Part shown: positions 7,754 through 44,093 of the stretch, in pieces
How the letters are laid out: each line of letters begins with the position of its first letter
How positions within the stretch are numbered: the stretch's first letter is position 1
Assembly (NCBI GenBank): GCA_022821775.1
Contig: JAJECY010000307.1
Coordinates: forward strand, 1 to 60,309
DNA length: 60,309 nucleotides
Direction of reading: 5' to 3'
Origin: Acidobacteriota bacterium
GTDB lineage: Bacteria; Acidobacteriota; Terriglobia; Versatilivoradales; Versatilivoraceae
Translations under genes and position numbers: made by a program
Notes under the pieces: model-generated
The model's database searches: none
What the model was told of the DNA's origin: nothing
What the model saw: the letters and a program-made list of their open reading frames with translations, nothing else

Positions 7754-10700
7754 TCAGGGAACGCCGTAAATGAAGAACGCGTCCCCGGAGGACTGACTGT
7801 CCTGGAATCCGTCGGAAACGACGGCAAAGGTCACGAACGGGTTGGACCCGGAAATTCGGGAGACGCGAACATAGCCCTGGCTGGTTTCCGGAGCATTCTG
7901 CTCGAGAATCGACGCCAACCGGATCGACTTCCGGGCCTCGAGTTCCACTTCCTCGATCGTATGGGCCAGCATCCCGGTTTCTCCGTCGTAGATCTTGACG
8001 CTGAAGAGGCTGGTCTCGTCGCTCAACTCTCCCGTATTGACGATTCCCAGATCGGTTTGGTTCTCCTGGTCCCGGCGCAACCCGTACACCCAGGCCGAGG
8101 TATGGTGGGAGTCTCCATAAGGTACGGCCGCGTGGACAAATCCGTTGCGGCGGCCGCCCATGAGAGTTGAATTCCTCGCACCCACGTAATAACCGCTATC
8201 CTCGCCGGCTCCATCAACGGTGACAAAGATGGAACCGGAGAAATCCTCACCGGCAGCACCCAACCCCGGGAAGAATGACCCCGGCAGGCTCCCCTGTTGC
8301 CGCAGCCAGCTTACGAATCCCGGCATGATGATCTGCTCGCCAGGTCTCACGGAGACGAATCGAGCACCCTGCGGATTCTGAATGCCGTCAGACAGAACCG
8401 AAAAGCCCACCACCTTCCAGGACTTCGACCAGTTTGTCACCACCAGCTCGCTGTTGAACCGGGCGGTTTTCTCCACGGCGAGCAGTGTCTGTCCCTTTCT
8501 GCCGACGGTCGCTCTTTCCGAAACAGGCGCAATAAAGGAACCATCGGAACCGCCCTTGCCAGAGAGGAGGGCATAGGCATAGAAGGGCGCTTGCCCTTCA
8601 ATCTTCTCGACGCGCACATAGCCATTTTCCAGCGAAAGACCGCTGGACCGGAGAACATCTTCGATCTCACTGAATGAACCCGGCTCCAACGTCTGATCTT
8701 CCAGAACCAGAAAATCCGGCTCCAGCGTCTGATCCTCAAGAACCAGGGAATCCGGCTGTCGAGGATCGCCGGAGACGATGGTCAGCCTCAAGGTGATTTC
8801 GCCGCTCTCCTGTGCCCCCAGGTTGTGAATCACAAGGCTGCTGCGATCCGCGTCGTTGTGGCGGAGTCCGCAGAGATACACCGGCTGGTGAAATCCGGTT
8901 GAAACGCCCGGATGGGCCCAACCGCTTCGGCCGCCATCGACCGTCCTGATGGTTCGCACGGCCACCGCCCCTTCCAATTCGGAGTTCAGTCCGGAAAAAC
9001 GAACCGACAGACTGCCTTCCCGGTCTCCCGAATCCGGAATGGGAACCCCCAATTCTCTCAGGTATTCAATAGCATCGGGCACGATGCGCTGCCGGCCCGC
9101 CGGCAGGTTGTCCGTGGCGGCGCCGCTTCCCCCGCCAATGGCCGCCGTGTAGGTGAATTCCAGCGTGGCCGGCCGAGTGCCCCGATTGCTGAGGGTCAGC
9201 TCCGAATTGACCGTAGCGCCATCGGACTCGGTGGTTGCGAGCACAATGGGCACAAAGACTTCAGCATCGCCAATGAGCCTCGCCACAAAGGCTCCATTTC
9301 CTTCCGAAGCCTGATAGGCCCCGGTGGTCAAGGTAACGTCGGAGCCCGCCTGCCCCGTGATGGTGGCGCTTCCCCGAGGGCTGACCCAAAGACCACTGCC
9401 TCCCTCGACGCTCTCGCCGCTTCCCGCCCTGACCGAGTAGACAATCTCCTCTCCCTCCGGGTCCAGTTTGCTTACAAAAATCTGTCCATCGGAAGACCCC
9501 GGGCCTTGTACCTCCGGGAAGTCGGAGGAAAGCGTCACACCCGTGACATAGGCGTTTCCTTGCAGATCCACACCCACGCCATTGGCGTAGTCGATGGAGC
9601 TGCCTCCCAGGTAAGTGGAGTAGACCAGCTCCGTCCCCTCCCGGTTCAGCTTGGAGACGAAGGCATCCAGGCACAGGGAGCTTCCGCAGATTCCGGCTCC
9701 GGGAGCCGTTTCGGAAAAAGCGCCGGCAGTCGTGGGAAAGTCCTGATAGGCCGTGTAACCGGTCACGTAGGCGTAGCCCTGGGCGTCGACAGCGATTCCC
9801 GTGATCGCCTCCAGTTCCTGGGGGGACGCATCGAAGGGGACGGAGGTCCCTCCCAGGCGGAAGCTGTAAAGGATCTCGGCCCCCTCGGAATCCAGCTTGG
9901 TCACGTAGGACTCGTTCCCGTTCCTGCCGGAGAGATAGGCATTGTTATGGGAATCCAGGGACACACCGGTGCCCCCCACGCCCTGGACCGAATAGATCAG
10001 CGATGTCCCCTCCGAGTGGAGCTTGGCCACAAACCCGCCGTCGGCGCCGTCCCCCGTGACGTAGGCGGATCCGTGGGCGTCGACGGCAACTCCGTTTCCG
10101 CCCAGTCCGCCTTCGTTGCCACCGAGATAAGTCGAGTAGAGCAGAGCCGTCCCGGTGGCATTGACCTTGGTGACAAAGGCACTGGTGCAGAACTGGCCCG
10201 CAAGGTCGGCAGGGCACTGCTCGCTTGACAGGGCCGACTGCCAGGCATCGGATGACACGGGGAAGTCGGAAGAGTTGGTGGTGCCGGTGAGAAAGGCATT
10301 GCCCTGAAAATCCACGGCAACTCCATACCCGTAATCGAATCCCGAACCGCCCAAGAAGGTGGAATAGATCAATTCCGTTCCCTCGGGGTTCAGTTTGGCC
10401 AAGAGAACGTCGGGACAGCGAACCAGGTTCGGCCCGTCATAACACTCCCCTTCGCTATGAAGACCTTGAAGGGCTCCGGCGGAGGTGAGAAAGGCGGGGT
10501 TGGCAATCCCCGTCACGTAGGCGCTCCCCTCCCGATCGACAGCGACGGCAAGCCCCCCGATCCCGCCGGCAGAATAGGTCAGCACGGGATCGATCACCAG
10601 AGGCCTGGCCGGATCATGGGCGCCCAATCGGAATCCTACCTCGCCGTTGCCACCGAGCTCGTACTGCACGCGGACCTCCTGGCGAACGCCACCCTCTTCC

Positions 10701-11461
10701 TGAAACGCCAGGGGACGCATCAGCCGGAGACCACCCGGGAGAATGAGGTTCCCCTGTTCATCCAGCGACACCCCGAGATGGGCCGGAATGCCCCTCATCC
10801 CCTCAAAGCGGAGGCGGATCGCGCCGGGATCGACACCCGAATCGAGCCGGAAATCGAACTCCAAACGCCGGCCGTTGCCGTAAAAGATCAAGTCGATCCC
10901 CGGATAGACCTGCTGGTAGCGGACCTTGGAAAAGGTCGGAACGTCCAATCGCCACTGCCCTGGGTCCGTGCCGCGCAAGTAGTGACTCTTGCTTCGGAGC
11001 CGGTTTTCGCCACGGATCCCGGGCCGAGGCTTGCCGTTGACGAGCCGCATCCGCAACGCCGATATCCCCCCAGCCGCCCCCTGCAGCCTGGACCCTCCCG
11101 GGGACCCGCCGGACTGAAATTGAAAGACCAGCTCGCGGTCGAGCAGCAGGTAGCTGTAGCCGGGTCCCCGGGAAAGGAAACGAACCTGCTTCCCTGCCTG
11201 GCCCCGATTCGGTTCGAAGCCAAGTGGCAATTCGGCATAGGTCTGCCGCACCTCGGCCTTGCGGAAAGTTTGCAGCCCATCCGGAAGAATCTCGGGTGCA
11301 GCAATGGCCGGCCGGCCTTGGGTTCGGGCCAAAGGCCGCGGACCCGCACCCCCCGGCGCAAGCTCTCCGGCCGCAAGCGGAGACATGCCACCGCCGGCTC
11401 CAATAAGTGCAGCCAAACCGAGAACAGCTTTCGGAACTAATACCCGGCAACACAATGACAT
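7754..11461 (-). CDS. Secreted SBBP beta-propeller-repeat protein with the shared C-terminal module
   Basis: N-terminal LPLGFEPNRGQ...LVIDPVL domain; repeated LxYSTYLGG...GVAVDxxGNAYVTG...SDFP (SBBP-like) units; C-terminal ~500 aa homologous to that of the LRR protein. Start set at MSLCC because the upstream ORF extension runs through a repeat element. Confidence 0.82.
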   Translation of the reverse strand: MSLCCRVLVPKAVLGLAALIGAGGGMSPLAAGELAPGGAGPRPLARTQGRPAIAAPEILPDGLQTFRKAEVRQTYAELPLGFEPNRGQAGKQVRFLSRGPGYSYLLLDRELVFQFQSGGSPGGSRLQGAAGGISALRMRLVNGKPRPGIRGENRLRSKSHYLRGTDPGQWRLDVPTFSKVRYQQVYPGIDLIFYGNGRRLEFDFRLDSGVDPGAIRLRFEGMRGIPAHLGVSLDEQGNLILPGGLRLMRPLAFQEEGGVRQEVRVQYELGGNGEVGFRLGAHDPARPLVIDPVLTYSAGGIGGLAVAVDREGSAYVTGIANPAFLTSAGALQGLHSEGECYDGPNLVRCPDVLLAKLNPEGTELIYSTFLGGSGFDYGYGVAVDFQGNAFLTGTTNSSDFPVSSDAWQSALSSEQCPADLAGQFCTSAFVTKVNATGTALLYSTYLGGNEGGLGGNGVAVDAHGSAYVTGDGADGGFVAKLHSEGTSLIYSVQGVGGTGVSLDSHNNAYLSGRNGNESYVTKLDSEGAEILYSFRLGGTSVPFDASPQELEAITGIAVDAQGYAYVTGYTAYQDFPTTAGAFSETAPGAGICGSSLCLDAFVSKLNREGTELVYSTYLGGSSIDYANGVGVDLQGNAYVTGVTLSSDFPEVQGPGSSDGQIFVSKLDPEGEEIVYSVRAGSGESVEGGSGLWVSPRGSATITGQAGSDVTLTTGAYQASEGNGAFVARLIGDAEVFVPIVLATTESDGATVNSELTLSNRGTRPATLEFTYTAAIGGGSGAATDNLPAGRQRIVPDAIEYLRELGVPIPDSGDREGSLSVRFSGLNSELEGAVAVRTIRTVDGGRSGWAHPGVSTGFHQPVYLCGLRHNDADRSSLVIHNLGAQESGEITLRLTIVSGDPRQPDSLVLEDQTLEPDFLVLEDQTLEPGSFSEIEDVLRSSGLSLENGYVRVEKIEGQAPFYAYALLSGKGGSDGSFIAPVSERATVGRKGQTLLAVEKTARFNSELVVTNWSKSWKVVGFSVLSDGIQNPQGARFVSVRPGEQIIMPGFVSWLRQQGSLPGSFFPGLGAAGEDFSGSIFVTVDGAGEDSGYYVGARNSTLMGGRRNGFVHAAVPYGDSHHTSAWVYGLRRDQENQTDLGIVNTGELSDETSLFSVKIYDGETGMLAHTIEEVELEARKSIRLASILEQNAPETSQGYVRVSRISGSNPFVTFAVVSDGFQDSQSSGDAFFIYGVP
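8680..8757. repeat. In-frame 36-bp tandem duplication
   Basis: ccggctccaacgtctgatcttccagaaccagaaaat / ccggctccagcgtctgatcctcaagaaccagggaat; encodes LVLEDQTLEP twice. Confidence 0.85.
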
Positions 11462-38924: not shown

Positions 38925-39686
38925 GTGCGCTCCAACAAGACCAAGGCCAAGCTCAAACGAGGAGAGTCGGTCTACGGCTGCTTCGTGCGCTATCCCGACC
39001 CCGCCCTGGTGGAGTTGCTGGCCCGCTTCGGGTGGGACTTCATGGTCTTCGAAAGCGAGCACGGCCGGCTGGACCCGCGCACCTGCGAGGAGATGGTGAG
39101 GGCGGCCGAGGTCAACGGCATCACCCCCATCGTGCGGGTGACCACCAATTCCCCCTCGATCATACTCAGATTTCTGGACACGGGCGCCCAGGGCATCATC
39201 GTTCCCCAGGTCAACTCGGCCGAAGAAGCCGAACGGGCGGTAGCGGCCGTCAAGTTCCAGCCTCGGGGCAATCGGGGACTGTCGGGATCTCGAGCCGCCG
39301 ATTACGGGCAGAGGCTCTCCCTTGGTGACCACGTCCTCCAGTCCAACCGGGAGATCCTGGTGGTCCTCTACGTGGAGACGGCGGAAGCGGTGCGGGAACT
39401 GCCGCGAATTCTGGCGGTGGAGGGCGTCGACGTGGTCAACGTGGGCCGCACCGATCTCTCCCAGTCGCTGGGCGTGCCCGGACAGCCCGAGCACCCCCGC
39501 ATGCGGCAATGCCTCCAGGAAATCCTGGCCGGCCTGCGCAACTCGCCGGTGGCCCTGGGGATCATGGCGGCCAACCCCGCGGCGGCCCGCCAGTGGCGCG
39601 CTCGGGGAGCACGCTACATCAGCATCAATCTGGAATCGCTACTGAAACAATCGGTGCAAGAGTTCCTGAGCGGTGCCCGCGGGTAA
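38925..39686 (+). CDS. HpcH/HpaI aldolase family protein
   Basis: DFMVFESEHG, LDTGAQGIIVPQV, KFQPRGNRG, VETAEAV, GRTDLS. Confidence 0.9.
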   Translation: MRSNKTKAKLKRGESVYGCFVRYPDPALVELLARFGWDFMVFESEHGRLDPRTCEEMVRAAEVNGITPIVRVTTNSPSIILRFLDTGAQGIIVPQVNSAEEAERAVAAVKFQPRGNRGLSGSRAADYGQRLSLGDHVLQSNREILVVLYVETAEAVRELPRILAVEGVDVVNVGRTDLSQSLGVPGQPEHPRMRQCLQEILAGLRNSPVALGIMAANPAAARQWRARGARYISINLESLLKQSVQEFLSGARG

Positions 39687-39741
39687 AGGGTGTTGACCCG
39701 CCCTCTTCGGGGCCGGATTCGCAGCCTGGGGCGTTGCGAGA

Positions 39742-40047
39742 GTCACCCCCGTCCCAAACCGATCGACGAGTGGCGACGACTGGAGAAGAGAGCCAGACCG
39801 GACCTCAAGGAACTCCTTCTCACGCCGGAGGCACGCACCGACGCACTGACGCCGCCCCGGCCGCAGCATCGCCACCGCAGGTCTCCCAGCTTCGAGTAAG
39901 TCCGTGTATCTGCTCGACACCAATGTTGTATCGGAACTGCGCCGTTTTCATCCGCATCCAAGCGTCGTCCGGCGGATTGAAGACGTATCCGCAGATGAAC
40001 TCTTTCTCCTGAATCCCTTCGACCGCGAATCCGAAATGCAGCGGTAG
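39742..40047 (+). pseudogene. Internally deleted copy of the Phd-VapC module at 41127-41993
   Basis: 39742-39758 matches 41127-41143; 39758-40009 is nearly identical to 41422-~41670; it then jumps to an NPF C-terminus. Confidence 0.88.
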
Positions 40048-40101
40048 GCTGGAGCAACCACCATCCACGGCGCGGGAACTCCCCGAGCTCTCCCTGTGGG
40101 G

Positions 40102-40232
40102 CGTGAATAGGGACGTTGTTGAATTACTGGAATTACTTGTAAAGAGCAGATAGGAGACCTCATTGAATCAAGGCCATTCGCCAGCGGCTGATCAAAGTTA
40201 TTCCAGTAGTTCAACAACGTCCCCGGCGCTCG
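40102..40232. mobile_element. MITE-like element, copy 1
   Basis: Terminal inverted repeats gggacgttgttgaattactggaat...attccagtagttcaacaacgtccc; near-identical to 40993-41124. Confidence 0.8.
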
Positions 40233-40234
40233 CA

Positions 40235-40612
40235 CTAAGGTATTCGCTTCCGATACCGAACCCCTTCGATCCCTTCGAAGTCTGAGTCCTGTGTCCAAAG
40301 TTCCGCGCCGTATTGGCGGGCGGTGGCGAGAATGACGCTGTCAGCCAGCGGTAGTCCCAGCTCTGCACTGAGACGGGCCGCGTTCAAAGCAATTGTTGCT
40401 TCCAGATTCACGATGGTCCCTTGCTGCATGACCGCTGCCGCCTCGAGCGCAGTGCTCTCGTCTCGTTGCTGGAGTACCCGTTTGAACACTTCGAAGAGAC
40501 TTAACGTAGGGACCACAAGCGCCTCTACGTCTTCGATAGGCTCCGCGAAGTAGGACGCGTTGGGTCCATCGGCGAAATACTCAAGCCACGCGCTGGAATC
40601 GACGACGTTCAT
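40235..40612 (-). CDS. vapC: VapC/PIN-domain toxin
   Basis: NVVDSSAWLE, LFEV, LADSVILATA, LWTQDSDF. Confidence 0.92.
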   Translation of the reverse strand: MNVVDSSAWLEYFADGPNASYFAEPIEDVEALVVPTLSLFEVFKRVLQQRDESTALEAAAVMQQGTIVNLEATIALNAARLSAELGLPLADSVILATARQYGAELWTQDSDFEGIEGVRYRKRIP

Positions 40613-40815
40613 TCCCGATCTCCCTCGCGTTCGACCTTCGTATCGATGCCTTTCAGAAAACCCCTCATCTCCAGGGCCGAGCGCACAGGAATGAGCTCAA
40701 TACGGCCGCCATAGGCAATCGCCTGGACCTTTTGGCCCGGCAGGAGGCCGAGCCGATCACGGATCTCCTTCGGAATGACTACCTGATACTTGGGCGAAAT
40801 GGTTACTGTTTGCAC
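40609..40815 (-). CDS. AbrB/MazE-fold antitoxin
   Basis: GGAGG precedes a GTG start; VTISPKYQVVIPKEIRDRLGL; 4-bp overlap with vapC; upstream palindrome cgatag-ag-ctatcg. Confidence 0.9.
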   Translation of the reverse strand: MQTVTISPKYQVVIPKEIRDRLGLLPGQKVQAIAYGGRIELIPVRSALEMRGFLKGIDTKVEREGDRE

Positions 40816-40992
40816 GGGTCCTCCATCGATAGAGCTATCGTAATACTGATATTGTATCAAACTCTCTCATGTAGGGTCGACTGAAAGGCTTCAGCGGGAG
40901 GGTGGTACGGATAAGTGTATTGGGGGAAACCAGGGAACGTTGTTGAATCAAAGGAAATCCTGGTTGGTATAGTAGGGCGAGAAGTACAGACA

Positions 40993-41124
40993 CGTGAATA
41001 GGGGACGTTGTTGAATTACTGGAATTAGTTGTAAAGAGCAGATAGGAGACGTCATTGAATCAAGGCCATTCACCAGCGGCTGATCGAAGTTATTCCAGTA
41101 ATTCAACAACGTCCCCGGCGCTCG
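40993..41124. mobile_element. MITE-like element, copy 2 (TIR-bounded core 41001-41116)
   Basis: Perfect 25-bp inverted repeats ggggacgttgttgaattactggaat (41001-41025) and attccagtaattcaacaacgtcccc (41092-41116). Confidence 0.85.
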
Positions 41125-41260
41125 GGGTCACCCCCGTCCCAAAAATCCCTGCATTTGGGCTCGAATTAATGCGACGGATAGACGTGCCATCGCGCCGGCG
41201 TGCGGCCTTGTGAATTGGCGTCACTCGGTCGGATCCGGGTTGCATTTTCAAGACAGGCAA

Positions 41261-41278
41261 ACTAGTCTTATGTCTAGT
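41261..41278. promoter_or_regulatory. Putative TA autoregulatory operator
   Basis: Inverted repeat ACTAG-n8-CTAGT just upstream of the antitoxin RBS (GGAGG). Confidence 0.4.
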
Positions 41279-41302
41279 CATTTTTGACGGAGGTAACGTC
41301 GC

Positions 41303-41563
41303 ATGAGCAGGACTTGGCAGGTGCAGGATGCCAAGGCGCGTTTCAGTGAGTTGCTTGAGAGAAGCTTGGCCGAAGGCCCCCAGATCGTGACCAAACGGGG
41401 TGTCGAGACAGCCGTGCTGGTACCGATCGACGAGTGGCGACGACTGGAGAAGAGAGCCAGACCGGACCTCAAGGAACTCCTTCTCACGCCGGAGGCACGC
41501 ACCGACGCACTGACGCCACCCCGGCCGCAGCATCGCCACCGCAGGTCTCCCAGCTTAGAGTAA
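41303..41563 (+). CDS. Phd/YefM family antitoxin
   Basis: WQVQDAKARFSELL...GPQIVTKRGVETAVLV. Confidence 0.92.
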   Translation: MSRTWQVQDAKARFSELLERSLAEGPQIVTKRGVETAVLVPIDEWRRLEKRARPDLKELLLTPEARTDALTPPRPQHRHRRSPSLE

Positions 41564-41567
41564 GTCC

Positions 41568-41993
41568 GTGTATCTGCTCGACACCAATGTTGTTTCGGAA
41601 CTGCGCCGTTTTCATCCGCATCCAAGCGTCGTCCGTTGGATTGAAGACGTATCCGCTGAAGAACTCTTCCTGTCCGCGGTAACTATCGGCGAAATCCAGG
41701 CGGGCATCGAACTCACGCGCGAGCAGGATGTCGCCAAGGCAGAAGAACTGGAAGCGTGGCTCAGCGCGGTGTTGGTCTCCTATAACGTCCTGCCAATGGA
41801 CGCAGACATATTCCGGGAATGGGCGCGACTCAAGCATCGCCGTTCCGACACGCTGCTGGAAGACGCCATGATCGCGGCGACGGCCATAGTACATAGGATG
41901 ACGATCGTGACCCGCAACGTGCGCGATTTTGACAAACTCGGGGCAGAACTCGTGAACCCCTTCGAACGTCCCTTTCGAAAGGATCAGCCGTGA
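41568..41993 (+). CDS. vapC: VapC/PIN-domain toxin
   Basis: YLLDTNVVSELR, SAVTIGEI, DAMIAATA, VTRNVRDF, NPF. Confidence 0.93.
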   Translation: MYLLDTNVVSELRRFHPHPSVVRWIEDVSAEELFLSAVTIGEIQAGIELTREQDVAKAEELEAWLSAVLVSYNVLPMDADIFREWARLKHRRSDTLLEDAMIAATAIVHRMTIVTRNVRDFDKLGAELVNPFERPFRKDQP

Positions 41994-42137
41994 AACTTTA
42001 CTACTGTCCCGAGACGGACAGTCTCTATGTTCGATCTCCATCCGACCTCTTTCAACTTTTGGTGTGAGCAAAGTTTCTCCAGCAACTCAACAACGTCCCC
42101 TTTTCCTTCGCCCGCGTGGAGAACTCCGGGCATACAT

Positions 42138-44093
42138 ATGATTCGACTTTCCGCGGCCAGAAAACACTTCGGCTCCAAGAGCCTATTCGAAGATCTCGAC
42201 TGGCTCATCACGCCGACGGATCGCATTGGACTGGTGGGCGGGAACGGGACAGGCAAGACAACACTGCTGAAGATCCTGGGGGGGATGGAGCCCCTGGATG
42301 GCGGTCTGTTTTCTGCGCCGAAAGATATTACCGCCGGATACCTTCCTCAGGATGGCCTGTCACTGTCAGGGCGCACGGTTCTGGAAGAATGCCTCTCTGT
42401 CTTTGGCGATCTGCTCGAACTCGAGGAAGAAATGAAAGCCCTGACTCACCAGATGGCGGAAGTCGATCCGCGCAGCGATGAGTACGGCCGGATCACGGAG
42501 CGTTATCACCGGATCGAGACCGAATTCCAGGGTCGGGACGGCTACTCATTGGAGGCGCAGGCCGGCACGGTACTGAATGGCCTGGGCTTTGCGCCCGCAG
42601 ATTTGAACCGTCCGACGGAATCACTCTCCGGCGGCTGGCAAATGCGCGTGGCGCTGGCCAAGCTCTTGCTGGTCAAGCCCAAGCTCCTCTTGCTGGACGA
42701 GCCGACCAATCACCTCGATCTCGAGGCCCGCAACTGGTTGCAACAGTATCTGAATGAGTATCCGCACGCCTTCGTGCTGGTCTCCCACGACCGTTACATG
42801 CTGGATGCCACGGTGAACAAGATTCTCGAGTTGTGGAATCGTCGCGCCTACTCTTACAGCGGCAACTACGAACGCTACCTGGCACAGAAGTCCGCGCGCC
42901 AAGCGCAACTTCAGGCGGCCTATCGCAACCAGCGGGAAAAGATCGAACGCCTTGAACTCTTCATCAATCGCTTCCGCTACCAGGCCACCAGGGCGAAGCA
43001 GGTACAGAGCCGAATCAAGGAGCTCGAGAAGATCAAACGGATCGAATTACCCGCCCGGGAAAAGACGATCCGATTCGAGTTTCCTCAGCCGCCCAGGAGC
43101 GGACGCATGGTGGCCGAGTTTCGCGGGGTCGCCAAGAGCTATGAAGGCAAACAAGTTTTCCACGGCATGAGCTTCGTCATCAACCGCGGGGATCGCATAG
43201 GCCTGGTGGGGGTGAATGGAGCGGGGAAGTCCACGCTGATCAAGATACTGGCGGGAAGCGAACCCGTGACGGCAGGTGAATTTCGGCTGGGACACAACGT
43301 GAAGGTCGACCATTTCGCACAGGACCAGTACAAGGAGCTCGACCCTGGCGCCCGCCTGATCGACGATGTCTCCAGCATCGCACCCAGTGCCCTGAGCGAC
43401 CGGACGCAACTGCGCACGCTGCTCGGCTGCTTCCTGTTTTCCAGTGACGAGGTCTTCAAACAGATCCGCGTTCTTTCGGGTGGCGAGCGCAACCGCTATG
43501 CGCTCCTCCGCATGTTGCTGCGGCCTCGAAATTTTCTGTTGCTCGACGAGCCCACCAACCACCTCGACCTGCGAGCCAAGGACGTACTGCTCGAAGCCCT
43601 GCAAGAGTTCAGTGGGACGGTAGTCTTTGTTTCCCACGATCGTTACTTCATCGACAAGCTGGCAACGCGGATCTTTGAGATCGATGGCGGCAGGTTCCAG
43701 GACTATTCCGGCAATTATGAAGACTACTTGCGGCAAAAGGACCAGGTCACGCTCCAACAGGACGATCGAGAGGAGCCGCCGGGCGCAGAGAATTCAGGGA
43801 GATCCGGCGACCGGAATGGAACACCGTTGCGACGGAACAAGATAAATCCTGTTCTGGTGCGGAGAATGAAGGAGCGGCACCAGGGGTTGGAGGAAGAAAT
43901 CACCCGGTGTGAAGTGGAAATTGCCACGCAGGAGTCGGATTTGGGCACTTTCAAGAGTGCAACGGAATCCATCCGCCTCGTCAAACTGGTGGAGCGCAAT
44001 CGCAAGCGGTTGGATGAAATGATCAGAGAGTGGGAGGAACTTTCGAGAACTCTGGAAGAATCGGACAGGAAGTCTTCCGTATTACGGAGTTAA
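42138..44093 (+). CDS. ABC-F family ATPase
   Basis: Two ABC cassettes (GGNGTGKT/LSGGW/LLLDEPTNHLD and GVNGAGKS/LSGGE/LLLDEPTNHLD), no TM domain, C-terminal coiled coil. Confidence 0.94.
   Translation: MIRLSAARKHFGSKSLFEDLDWLITPTDRIGLVGGNGTGKTTLLKILGGMEPLDGGLFSAPKDITAGYLPQDGLSLSGRTVLEECLSVFGDLLELEEEMKALTHQMAEVDPRSDEYGRITERYHRIETEFQGRDGYSLEAQAGTVLNGLGFAPADLNRPTESLSGGWQMRVALAKLLLVKPKLLLLDEPTNHLDLEARNWLQQYLNEYPHAFVLVSHDRYMLDATVNKILELWNRRAYSYSGNYERYLAQKSARQAQLQAAYRNQREKIERLELFINRFRYQATRAKQVQSRIKELEKIKRIELPAREKTIRFEFPQPPRSGRMVAEFRGVAKSYEGKQVFHGMSFVINRGDRIGLVGVNGAGKSTLIKILAGSEPVTAGEFRLGHNVKVDHFAQDQYKELDPGARLIDDVSSIAPSALSDRTQLRTLLGCFLFSSDEVFKQIRVLSGGERNRYALLRMLLRPRNFLLLDEPTNHLDLRAKDVLLEALQEFSGTVVFVSHDRYFIDKLATRIFEIDGGRFQDYSGNYEDYLRQKDQVTLQQDDREEPPGAENSGRSGDRNGTPLRRNKINPVLVRRMKERHQGLEEEITRCEVEIATQESDLGTFKSATESIRLVKLVERNRKRLDEMIREWEELSRTLEESDRKSSVLRS

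Follow-up and report, generated by a model that had tools for sequence, protein, structure and literature searches.

RAYT-like genes (RAYT, REP-associated tyrosine transposase; REP, repetitive extragenic palindrome) with long terminal inverted repeats (TIRs) around them in place of REPs have been described as TIRtrons, and their transposases as TIRYTs (Di Nocera et al. 2013, PMC3733652). According to that description the motif GGGGWSAS is common to many TIRs, some TIRs form moderately abundant repeat families present as single units, dimers and clusters, and of the groups, that of the Acidobacteria stands out most sharply. Most of these TIRYTs have since been placed in subclass 2.1 of TnpA_REP (PMC6006769), a subclass with a C-terminal Bac_DnaA_C/HTH_23/HTH_28 domain (Quentin et al. 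2018, PMC6006769) and with the motifs NHVH or NH[YF]H, W[EQ] or FQ, and YIELNP or Y[IV]HLNP (PMC6006769, Table 1). Here we discuss a short palindromic element in a stretch of 60,309 nucleotides (the window) from the metagenome-derived genome of an Acidobacteriota bacterium, where two copies of the element and two solitary ends of its type stand among toxin-antitoxin (TA) genes of the VapBC type. In our judgement the window probably holds an ordinary non-autonomous repeat family, derived from a TIRtron, which has colonised a variable TA locus.

Throughout, G000 is the window's genome, whose contig C187 is the window, G001-G013 are congeners and X1-X3 are public sequencing runs. The G000 assembly comprises 4.40 Mb in 312 contigs, being fragmented and metagenome-derived; the labels of the public runs name sponge and marine metagenomes as their origin.

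In the closed congener G002, a segment of 1340 bp (C1:2501342-2502681) has family ends on both sides, is flanked by ..TA and TA.., and encodes a protein of 321 aa, P0001. This protein matches the Pfam family Y1_Tnp with E 1.6e-7 (31.9 bits, above the cut-off of 23), and its top NCBIfam model is the REP-associated tyrosine transposase NF047646 (E 9.6e-17, profile positions 3-145 of 146). Residues 255-317 match Bac_DnaA_C with E 6.8e-5, and HTH_3 and HTH_23 match the same stretch. With its motifs NHAH, FQ and YIHLNP, P0001 fits, as far as its sequence tells, a TIRYT of TnpA_REP subclass 2.1. Full-length gene copies bounded by ends on both sides are also present in G010 and G012, and G004 has the gene at full length with one end alone found in the locus. 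The 13 P0001 matches of G012 include three of full length, two of them with a stop codon; truncated copies are found in G005, G007, G008, G003 and G013, and G001, the congener without repeats, has weak partial matches. G000 itself keeps a relic at C8:37429-37581, corresponding to P0001 residues 271-321 (51 codons, 82% identity) with the rest of the gene lost, and this relic abuts a solo end at C8:37585-37608. As the 259-bp class of the repeats retains both distinct subterminal regions of the full-length element, it is an internal-deletion derivative of it. Judged by sequence, the repeats have their ends in common with an apparently autonomous transposase element in G002, G010 and G012, as is expected of miniature inverted-repeat transposable elements (MITEs). 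The original prediction, which regarded the array as transposase-free and the 116-bp copies as non-autonomous and in need of a transposase in trans, had proposed to look for an autonomous partner by searching the 116-bp core and the TIR genome-wide; the partner was found in these three genomes, where the same ends bound the transposase gene. This agrees with the non-autonomous nature of the copies, and the family is not transposase-free.

The palindromic element would accordingly be a miniature, hairpin-forming offshoot, without coding function, of a TIRtron of about 1.34 kb, in which TIRs of 30 nt surround a RAYT-like Y1/HUH tyrosine transposase gene with a C-terminal helix-turn-helix (HTH). 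Homology and anatomy suggest that copies spread in trans by the TIRYT through single-stranded hairpin intermediates. Another candidate partner, a classical IS200-like gene, was rejected, because C304:4948-5292 (L051 1390-1854, minus strand) is flanked by a different palindromic repeat. It is the sole strong Y1_Tnp match in G000, belonging to the IS200/IS605 family with 82.6 bits against a cut-off of 55, and the GC-rich palindrome on both of its sides (..CCATGGGCTGACGCCCACGGCTAAGCGCTGACGCC..) is REPtron-like and unrelated to the studied element. No transposase was found beside solo ends by Pfam on the open reading frames (ORFs) around C292, C282, C253, C78, C158, C307, C16 and C216.

The family is genus-wide and not local to the window. 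A census with the 24-nt end and at most five mismatches gives 96 end-matches across 45 loci of G000, and the paired ends fall into size classes of 116 bp (the majority), 72, 85, 150, 160-170, about 205 and 259 bp. Twelve of the 13 congeners have the family, as against none of the 27 genomes from other genera of the same family and class, and each of five closed congener genomes has between 46 and 141 end-matches, versus 0 with a reversed control pattern. Within the window, the element copies and ends lie between a conserved aldolase gene and a conserved ABC-F gene, together with two VapBC-type pairs that are intact and another pair that has decayed, as follows:

38925..39686, plus strand: HpcH/HpaI-family aldolase (PF03328, E 2.7e-32), the conserved left anchor, with an ortholog in 13 of 13 congeners searched
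39742..40047, plus strand: decayed Phd-VapC pair (repeats D1 and D10)
40102..40232 including flanks, core 40109-40224, plus strand: 116-bp element copy 1, with family flanks GTGAATA / GGCGCTCG
40235..40612, minus strand: VapC-type PIN toxin (PF01850, E 1.6e-17; NCBIfam VapC family)
40609..40860, minus strand: AbrB/MazE-type antitoxin, partner of the minus-strand PIN (PF04014, E 3.8e-10; TIGR01439 AbrB)
40933-40956, within 40933..40995, plus strand: solo left-type end (24-mer, 4 mismatches), left part of an older subfamily-B element
40993..41124 including flanks, core 41001-41116, plus strand: 116-bp element copy 2, with conserved flanks
41303..41563, plus strand: Phd/YefM-type antitoxin (PF02604, E 1.7e-15; TIGR01552)
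41568..41993, plus strand: VapC-type PIN toxin (PF01850, E 1.1e-18)
42077-42100, within 42027..42100, plus strand: solo right-type end (24-mer, 3 mismatches), the right-hand portion of this older subfamily-B element
42138..44093, plus strand: ABC-F ATPase (PF00005 and PF12848), the conserved right anchor

Copies 1 and 2 are 96% identical across 123 nt (D2), and the arms of each copy, 30 nt long, are 93% complementary (I2, I3). Folded as single-stranded DNA, copy 2 forms a perfect stem of 25 bp with -29.9 kcal/mol (z -6.2), equalled by 0 of 200 shuffles, and the 22-mer end with at most three mismatches is matched five times in the window versus 0 in 100 shuffles. The units are short (116-259 bp), multi-copy and bounded by TIRs of 25-30 nt. 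On the whole, repeat search, Pfam and folding bear out what had been seen in the window at the outset, namely the element copies with their TIRs, the solo ends, the TA genes and the shared flanks. No family was assigned to the ORFs overlapping both 116-bp copies, which were not separately submitted to Pfam, and an Rfam scan of 39600-42300 at relaxed threshold gave a single chance-level match (E 0.38, far under gathering).

As to the TA genes, the AbrB gene 40609-40860 and the PIN gene 40235-40612 overlap by 4 nt, and Phd 41303-41563 directly precedes PIN 41568-41993; by their sequences, both intact pairs have the gene arrangement of a type II (VapBC-type) system. The decayed pair derives by deletion from the intact Phd-VapC unit, because 39742-39758 equals 41127-41143 (D10) and 39758-40007 corresponds to 41422-41671 at 97% (D1). 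Its two ORFs have no Pfam match, and its VapC tail resembles the allele in G011, G005 and G013. By tblastn, G013, G002 and G008 have the minus-strand PIN at this locus too, and for G003 the DNA coordinates beside the aldolase match place it here.

The flanks deserve attention, since the original prediction took them as an argument against independent transposition. CGTGAATA and GGCGCTCG are indeed present outside the TIRs of both window copies. The argument fails, as flanks of the GAATA / RGCGCT type recur at most 116-bp copies of G000 and the congeners: most of them in G000 carry (G/A)ATA outside one TIR and (A/G)GCGCT outside the opposite one, BLAST matches in G000 and the congeners often extend 5-8 nt beyond the inverted repeats, and the right flank in many copies runs on as AGCGCTCGACGACGAATTTTGCAAAAGGCT. 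Since the same flanks recur across the family, their sharing does not imply a local duplication. The final 14 nt of AGCGCTCGACGACGAATTTTGCAAAAGGCT, that is TTTTGCAAAAGGCT, have 169 genome-wide matches (at most two mismatches) and terminate many different repeat bodies, hence the repeats form mosaics resembling bacterial interspersed mosaic elements (BIMEs). Relative to the flanks, the core may run in either direction, for example in C25 versus C85, or in a G005 copy versus the window copies. The recurring flanks are either the true element ends, with Y1-type cleavage outside the hairpins, or a preferred target; true ends a few bases outside the inverted repeats would explain the recurrence. 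For the long classes, the dinucleotide TA on both sides could equally be an extension of the TIR rather than a target-site duplication. An IS630-type origin of these TA dinucleotides was considered and rejected, there being no DDE_3 gene at the scanned element loci of G000; DDE_3 fragments do occur in the G002 loci L055 and L056, and the one in L056 lies about 20 bp from an element, not inside it. In addition, short forms with only GGGGACGTCCCC in place of the 116-bp element are found at C26:11400-11466, C46:10482-10548 and C198:17997-18183, and may be collapsed palindromes or target sites.

The ABC-F gene is located downstream of the aldolase gene, within 7 kb, in 9 of the 11 congener regions examined. 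Relatives were inspected between the two anchors, as had been proposed at the outset, and the content of the interval is:

G006: about 150 bp, with a decayed element alone
G009, G010 and G004: one element of about 170 bp
G008: AbrB-PIN and a Phd-VapC remnant, no end-match
G002: AbrB-PIN and Phd alone, no end-match
G011 and G005: element, then Phd-VapC
G013: Phd-VapC, about 1 kb, PIN-AbrB, left-type end
G003: PIN-AbrB, intact element of 158 bp (1508-1665), Phd-VapC

These orders suggest that VapBC-type cassettes were gained, lost and rearranged between species at a locus framed by conserved genes. The left part of the G003 element corresponds to the window's 40933 end, and its positions 1592-1661 align to window 42027-42096. 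Window 40933..40995 is also homologous to the left part of the AbrB-adjacent element in G013, and the right part of the older element abuts ABC-F in G009, followed by the same downstream spacer as in the window. Given the matches in G003 and G009, the two solo ends are halves of one older element of about 160-170 bp, with copy 2 and the Phd-VapC cassette now lying between them. The older element of about 160 bp would have been first at the locus, with the two 116-bp copies as later arrivals. A close relative represented by contigs of X2/X3 (99% identity over 41125-42300, about 92% over PIN-AbrB) has the order aldolase end, 113 nt, PIN-AbrB, about 109 nt, Phd-VapC and ABC-F. Missing from its contigs are the left-type end, the decayed pair and the two copies of the 116-bp element, and homology to the window resumes at 40239 past copy 1 and at 41125 past copy 2. 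Since this relative has the cassettes without the copies, the 116-bp copies are younger than the cassette arrangement. About 60 nt like the aldolase 3' end (window 39630-39689) are repeated beyond PIN-AbrB in X2/X3, where the sequence looks as if the PIN-AbrB cassette had been inserted with a duplication of the aldolase end.

The comparison also bears on the proposal that 40933..42100 is a cargo element, that is, a non-autonomous transposon with diverged ends around Phd-VapC and a nested 116-bp copy, moving as a unit. We consider this very improbable. A left-type and a right-type end do enclose the module in the correct relative orientation, but both match halves of one short element, which is intact in G003 and abuts ABC-F in G009. 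Paralogous Phd-VapC cassettes are present at a second locus in G005 and G010, the one in G005 with a 116-bp element just upstream, but at that locus VapC is not followed by a right-type end, and the junction of element and cassette differs from the window's; the copy on G005 C1 is a 3.5-kb segmental duplicate with 96.9% identity rather than a product of transposition, and the G010 copy has no end at all. These points tell against the proposal, the composite not having been sought elsewhere. A smaller moving unit, consisting of the 116-bp element and Phd-VapC, was rejected too, as both G005 copies belong to a single segmental duplication of 3.5 kb.

The window might further owe part of its pattern to assembly, with repeats misjoined in a fragmented, metagenome-derived genome. 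Many element copies are at contig ends among the 312 contigs, and X1, the public run that best represents the stretch and probably the source sample, has short unitigs alone on the stretch, no contig crossing it, and a depth at 39782-40054 of 0.6-4.1 versus about 9-10 on the flanks. Such an artefact is nevertheless quite improbable, because X1 unitigs with 0-1 differences link the decayed VapC to copy 1 (39942-40212), copy 1 via PIN-AbrB to copy 2 (40204-41021) and copy 2 to Phd (41088-41451), and similar arrays are present in closed congener genomes. The low depth suggests that the decayed copy may belong to a minority strain; the read check used contigs of older runs, in which coverage holes prove nothing. 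As a separate observation on the assembly, G000 has two DnaA-domain matches (C60:25778-26260 and C224:801-1283; 230.8 and 229 bits) versus one in each of the 13 congeners, and the second may reflect strain heterogeneity of the assembly or a real second copy.

We then turn to the gene context of the elements in G000. ORFs of at least 55-60 aa were compared with Pfam at 34 loci, comprising 33 of the 45 loci and one copy cut by a contig end, with 12 of the 45 outside the scan. At 30 of the 34 scanned loci there is no TA gene within 500 bp, and the neighbours with a Pfam match are mostly housekeeping genes (MiaA, glutamate synthase, RuvX, FolD/DAHP synthase, GltX/IspD, enolase, DUF1501/PSD1). Somewhat farther off, C144 has a BrnT toxin at about 1.1 kb and C78 a PIN-domain protein of 338 aa at about 0.8 kb. 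TA genes lie directly beside elements at four loci, namely the window, C20, C8 and C27 (HigB). The order on C20 is MazEF, element, HigBA, element, AbiV and so on, and that on C8 is transposase relic with end, HicAB, element, unknown gene, element, TacAT. The AbiV-type protein of the C20 array is a HEPN protein (C20:11363-11911, E 2e-33). At C8:37642-38193 (L032 2143-2694, minus strand), an ORF of 184 aa with a partial HicA (5-43) and a full HicB (51-173) possibly represents a HicAB pair altered by fusion or frameshift.

Counted over five toxin families, G000 has 45 genes (PIN 31, PemK 6, ParE 4, HicA 3, HigB-like 1). Six of them are located within 500 bp of an end, versus a mean of 0.71 on random relocation, and 0 of 2000 permutations reach six; counted by contig, the figures are four versus 0.69 expected (P = 0.005). 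In this null the loci were placed anywhere and not just between genes, and the window itself contributes two of the six toxin genes. Though real, the enrichment is a minority effect, as 39 of the 45 toxin genes have no nearby element and most element loci have no toxin. An ordinary MITE had been expected at the outset to be scattered genome-wide and to lack TA enrichment; the scatter is found, and the enrichment is found as well. The co-occurrence may arise because TA islands tolerate insertions, and because the repeats would make deletion-prone arrays that addiction modules help to retain.

Besides the window, elements and accessory genes form arrays in several genomes. In G002, locus L053 begins with element, YafQ-RelB, element, alpha/beta hydrolase, element, BrnTA and element, and continues with two unknown genes, an end, MazF-RHH, an element and a Sel1 protein. 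Locus L056 of the same genome combines four elements with a ParE-Phd pair, GmrSD, a fragment of a PIN gene and an Unstab_antitox gene. Its GmrSD-type endonuclease (9234-10718) and the AbiV-type protein of C20 are defence-type products encoded in arrays that also contain TA pairs. The array of G009 (C1:1106000-1131000; L057, L058) has six paired elements in about 12 kb, widened by solo ends to about 22.5 kb, and includes 4-5 FGE-sulfatase paralogs, an ankyrin-repeat protein, a pentapeptide-repeat protein, a DDE transposase and several genes without a Pfam match; no TA genes are found in it. Five plus-strand genes of this array end from 24 bp inside an element to 28 bp before it. Every array shows a uniform element orientation (4/4, 5/5, 6/6, 4/4 and three pairs) and one subfamily, with an internal identity of 66-96%, mostly 69-87%. 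The subfamilies track arrays across species, with about 205 bp in C20 and L056, about 168 bp in C144 and L053, and about 211-221 bp in G009. C20 and L056 have elements in common and no cassette in common, and C144 and L053 have one hydrolase cassette in common with differing neighbours.

The elements could accordingly be taken as recombination sites of an integron-like cassette platform, at whose hairpins gene units are captured, excised or exchanged, which is close to one alternative of the original prediction. Such a platform would give rise to arrays of cassette-plus-element units and account for the gathering of TA and defence genes in them. Much of the array evidence speaks for it: C20, C8, L053 and L056 alternate elements with one- or two-gene units, each array keeps one subfamily and one orientation, genes of the G009 array end near elements, and units turn over between the paired arrays just compared; at the window locus, cassette content and order vary among nine congeners, with rearrangement breakpoints inside elements. 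We still regard the integron-like platform as unlikely. G000 has eight PF00589 matches, and none of them is on C187, C20, C8 or C144, although the C20 array runs beyond the end of its contig and an integrase may lie farther out. The consensus of attC is 5'-RYYYAAC ... GTTRRRY-3'. The R-box-like heptamers of the element, GTTGAAT ... ATTCAAC on both strands, are in the reverse order to the R''/R' boxes. A Xer/dif-like reading of the ends, considered by eye alone, was dropped. In the TA arrays cassette orientation is mixed, the window locus of G008, of G002 and of the X2/X3 strain has TA cassettes but no element, and most copies are single, between housekeeping genes. Tandem duplication, visible in the FGE-sulfatase paralogs, appears to explain the G009 array in part. 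In addition, REP-type repeats are described as clustering and sitting just downstream of ORFs (PMC3733652), a tendency which covers part of the remaining regularity of the arrays. A related possibility, rather unlikely in our view, is that the hairpin elements are junctions of an HUH- or hairpin-based cassette platform, an integron analogue without integron integrase; that TA pairs, defence genes and eukaryote-like repeat proteins would be exchanged there unit by unit, so that arrays persist as content turns over, we find doubtful to the same degree.

Several points weigh against a TIRtron-derived repeat family of the ordinary kind. P0001 scores 23.3 bits on Bac_DnaA_C, under the Pfam cut-off of 31.5, and 61.2 bits on NF047646, under the cut-off of 80; the latter model is an equivalog for RAYTs proper, and the low score counts against P0001 being a RAYT and not against its being a TIRYT. 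G006, G009 and G011 are rich in repeats and have no P0001 match. Of the eight positions in the published motif GGGG[AT][CG]A[CG], the end GGGGACGT agrees with 6, and the mobilisation of its repeats by a TIRYT is put forward in PMC3733652 and PMC6006769 as a hypothesis, without experimental proof there. The flanks of the 116-bp class are asymmetric (GAATA / RGCGCT), those of the long classes being TA on either side. The comparison with empty sites at C25 and C233 gave no clean insertion boundary, cleavage site or target. At the C25 site G013 is without the copy, but an adjacent unrelated repeat is gone too. For the C233 site (G000:C233:4255-4370), G013:C1:603148-603198 retains just TGAATAGGGGACGCTGCAC, which consists of both flanks and the outermost bases of one arm and looks as if a deletion at the stem base had removed the palindrome. 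G005 is without the entire spacer. Nor do the 116-bp copies show a replichore bias with dnaA as the proxy of the origin (G002 5+/2- versus 3+/5-; G005 2+/4- versus 4+/3-; G008 2+/2- versus 2+/3-), a result which is uninformative, core direction varying relative to the flanks. Finally, insertion by chance accounts neither for the uniform orientation and single subfamily of each array nor for the roughly 8-fold TA enrichment. Two patterns are left over and unexplained, namely this enrichment and the arrays whose elements are uniform and of one subfamily although their content changes; it is these that leave the junction reading of the hairpin elements a low probability.

Read as a TIRtron-derived family, a striking local pattern is explained as ordinary mobile-repeat biology, and an orphan repeat family of a sponge-metagenome genome is linked to a probable transposase in congeners. 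The case also illustrates that flanks common to copies may belong to the repeat unit itself or represent a preferred target, and are not proof of a local duplication. Arrays in at least three genomes keep uniform orientation and subfamily as their cassette content changes, and if a mechanism rather than tolerance and selection stands behind them, TIRYT repeats would rank beside integrons and pdif modules among the organisers of accessory genes. In PMC3733652 the word toxin is absent from the main text, and in the portions of the TIRYT and REPIN-RAYT literature reached by our search no account came up of same-orientation arrays that alternate with TA or defence genes.

Among known systems, we then compare first with Correia/NEMIS-type MITEs and BIME mosaics, which are likewise short intergenic TIR elements, with TA-dinucleotide flanks as in the long classes here and with nesting among other repeats; unlike them, the present family has an identifiable candidate Y1/HUH mobilising gene in congeners. 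Integron arrays and CALINs (clusters of attC sites lacking integron integrases) are alike in having one- or two-gene units split by same-orientation imperfect palindromes, in being rich in TA genes and in varying in content between species, but here no integrase is found on the array contigs, the box order is opposite, gene orientation is mixed, and the element is mostly single and dispersed. With REPIN-RAYT systems the family has in common non-coding units of about 100 bp in one long hairpin, present in dozens of copies and here confined to one genus, and the relation of these units to ends flanking a RAYT-like gene; in contrast, the studied arms pair with each other instead of each making its own short REP hairpin tagged with GTAG, and G012 has the gene in multiple, decaying copies in place of one conserved, vertically kept copy. 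Finally, TIRtrons with their TIRYTs, as described in PMC3733652 and PMC6006769, differ in that the family end of G000 agrees with the 8-mer at six positions, the G000 gene is down to 51 codons and there are several length subfamilies; they are alike in the RAYT-like Y1/HUH gene, the C-terminal DnaA_C/HTH-like domain and the long TIRs starting with GGGG, and likewise in the dispersed repeats of moderate abundance, occurring singly, as dimers or in clusters, for which an Acidobacteria group has been described (PMC3733652).

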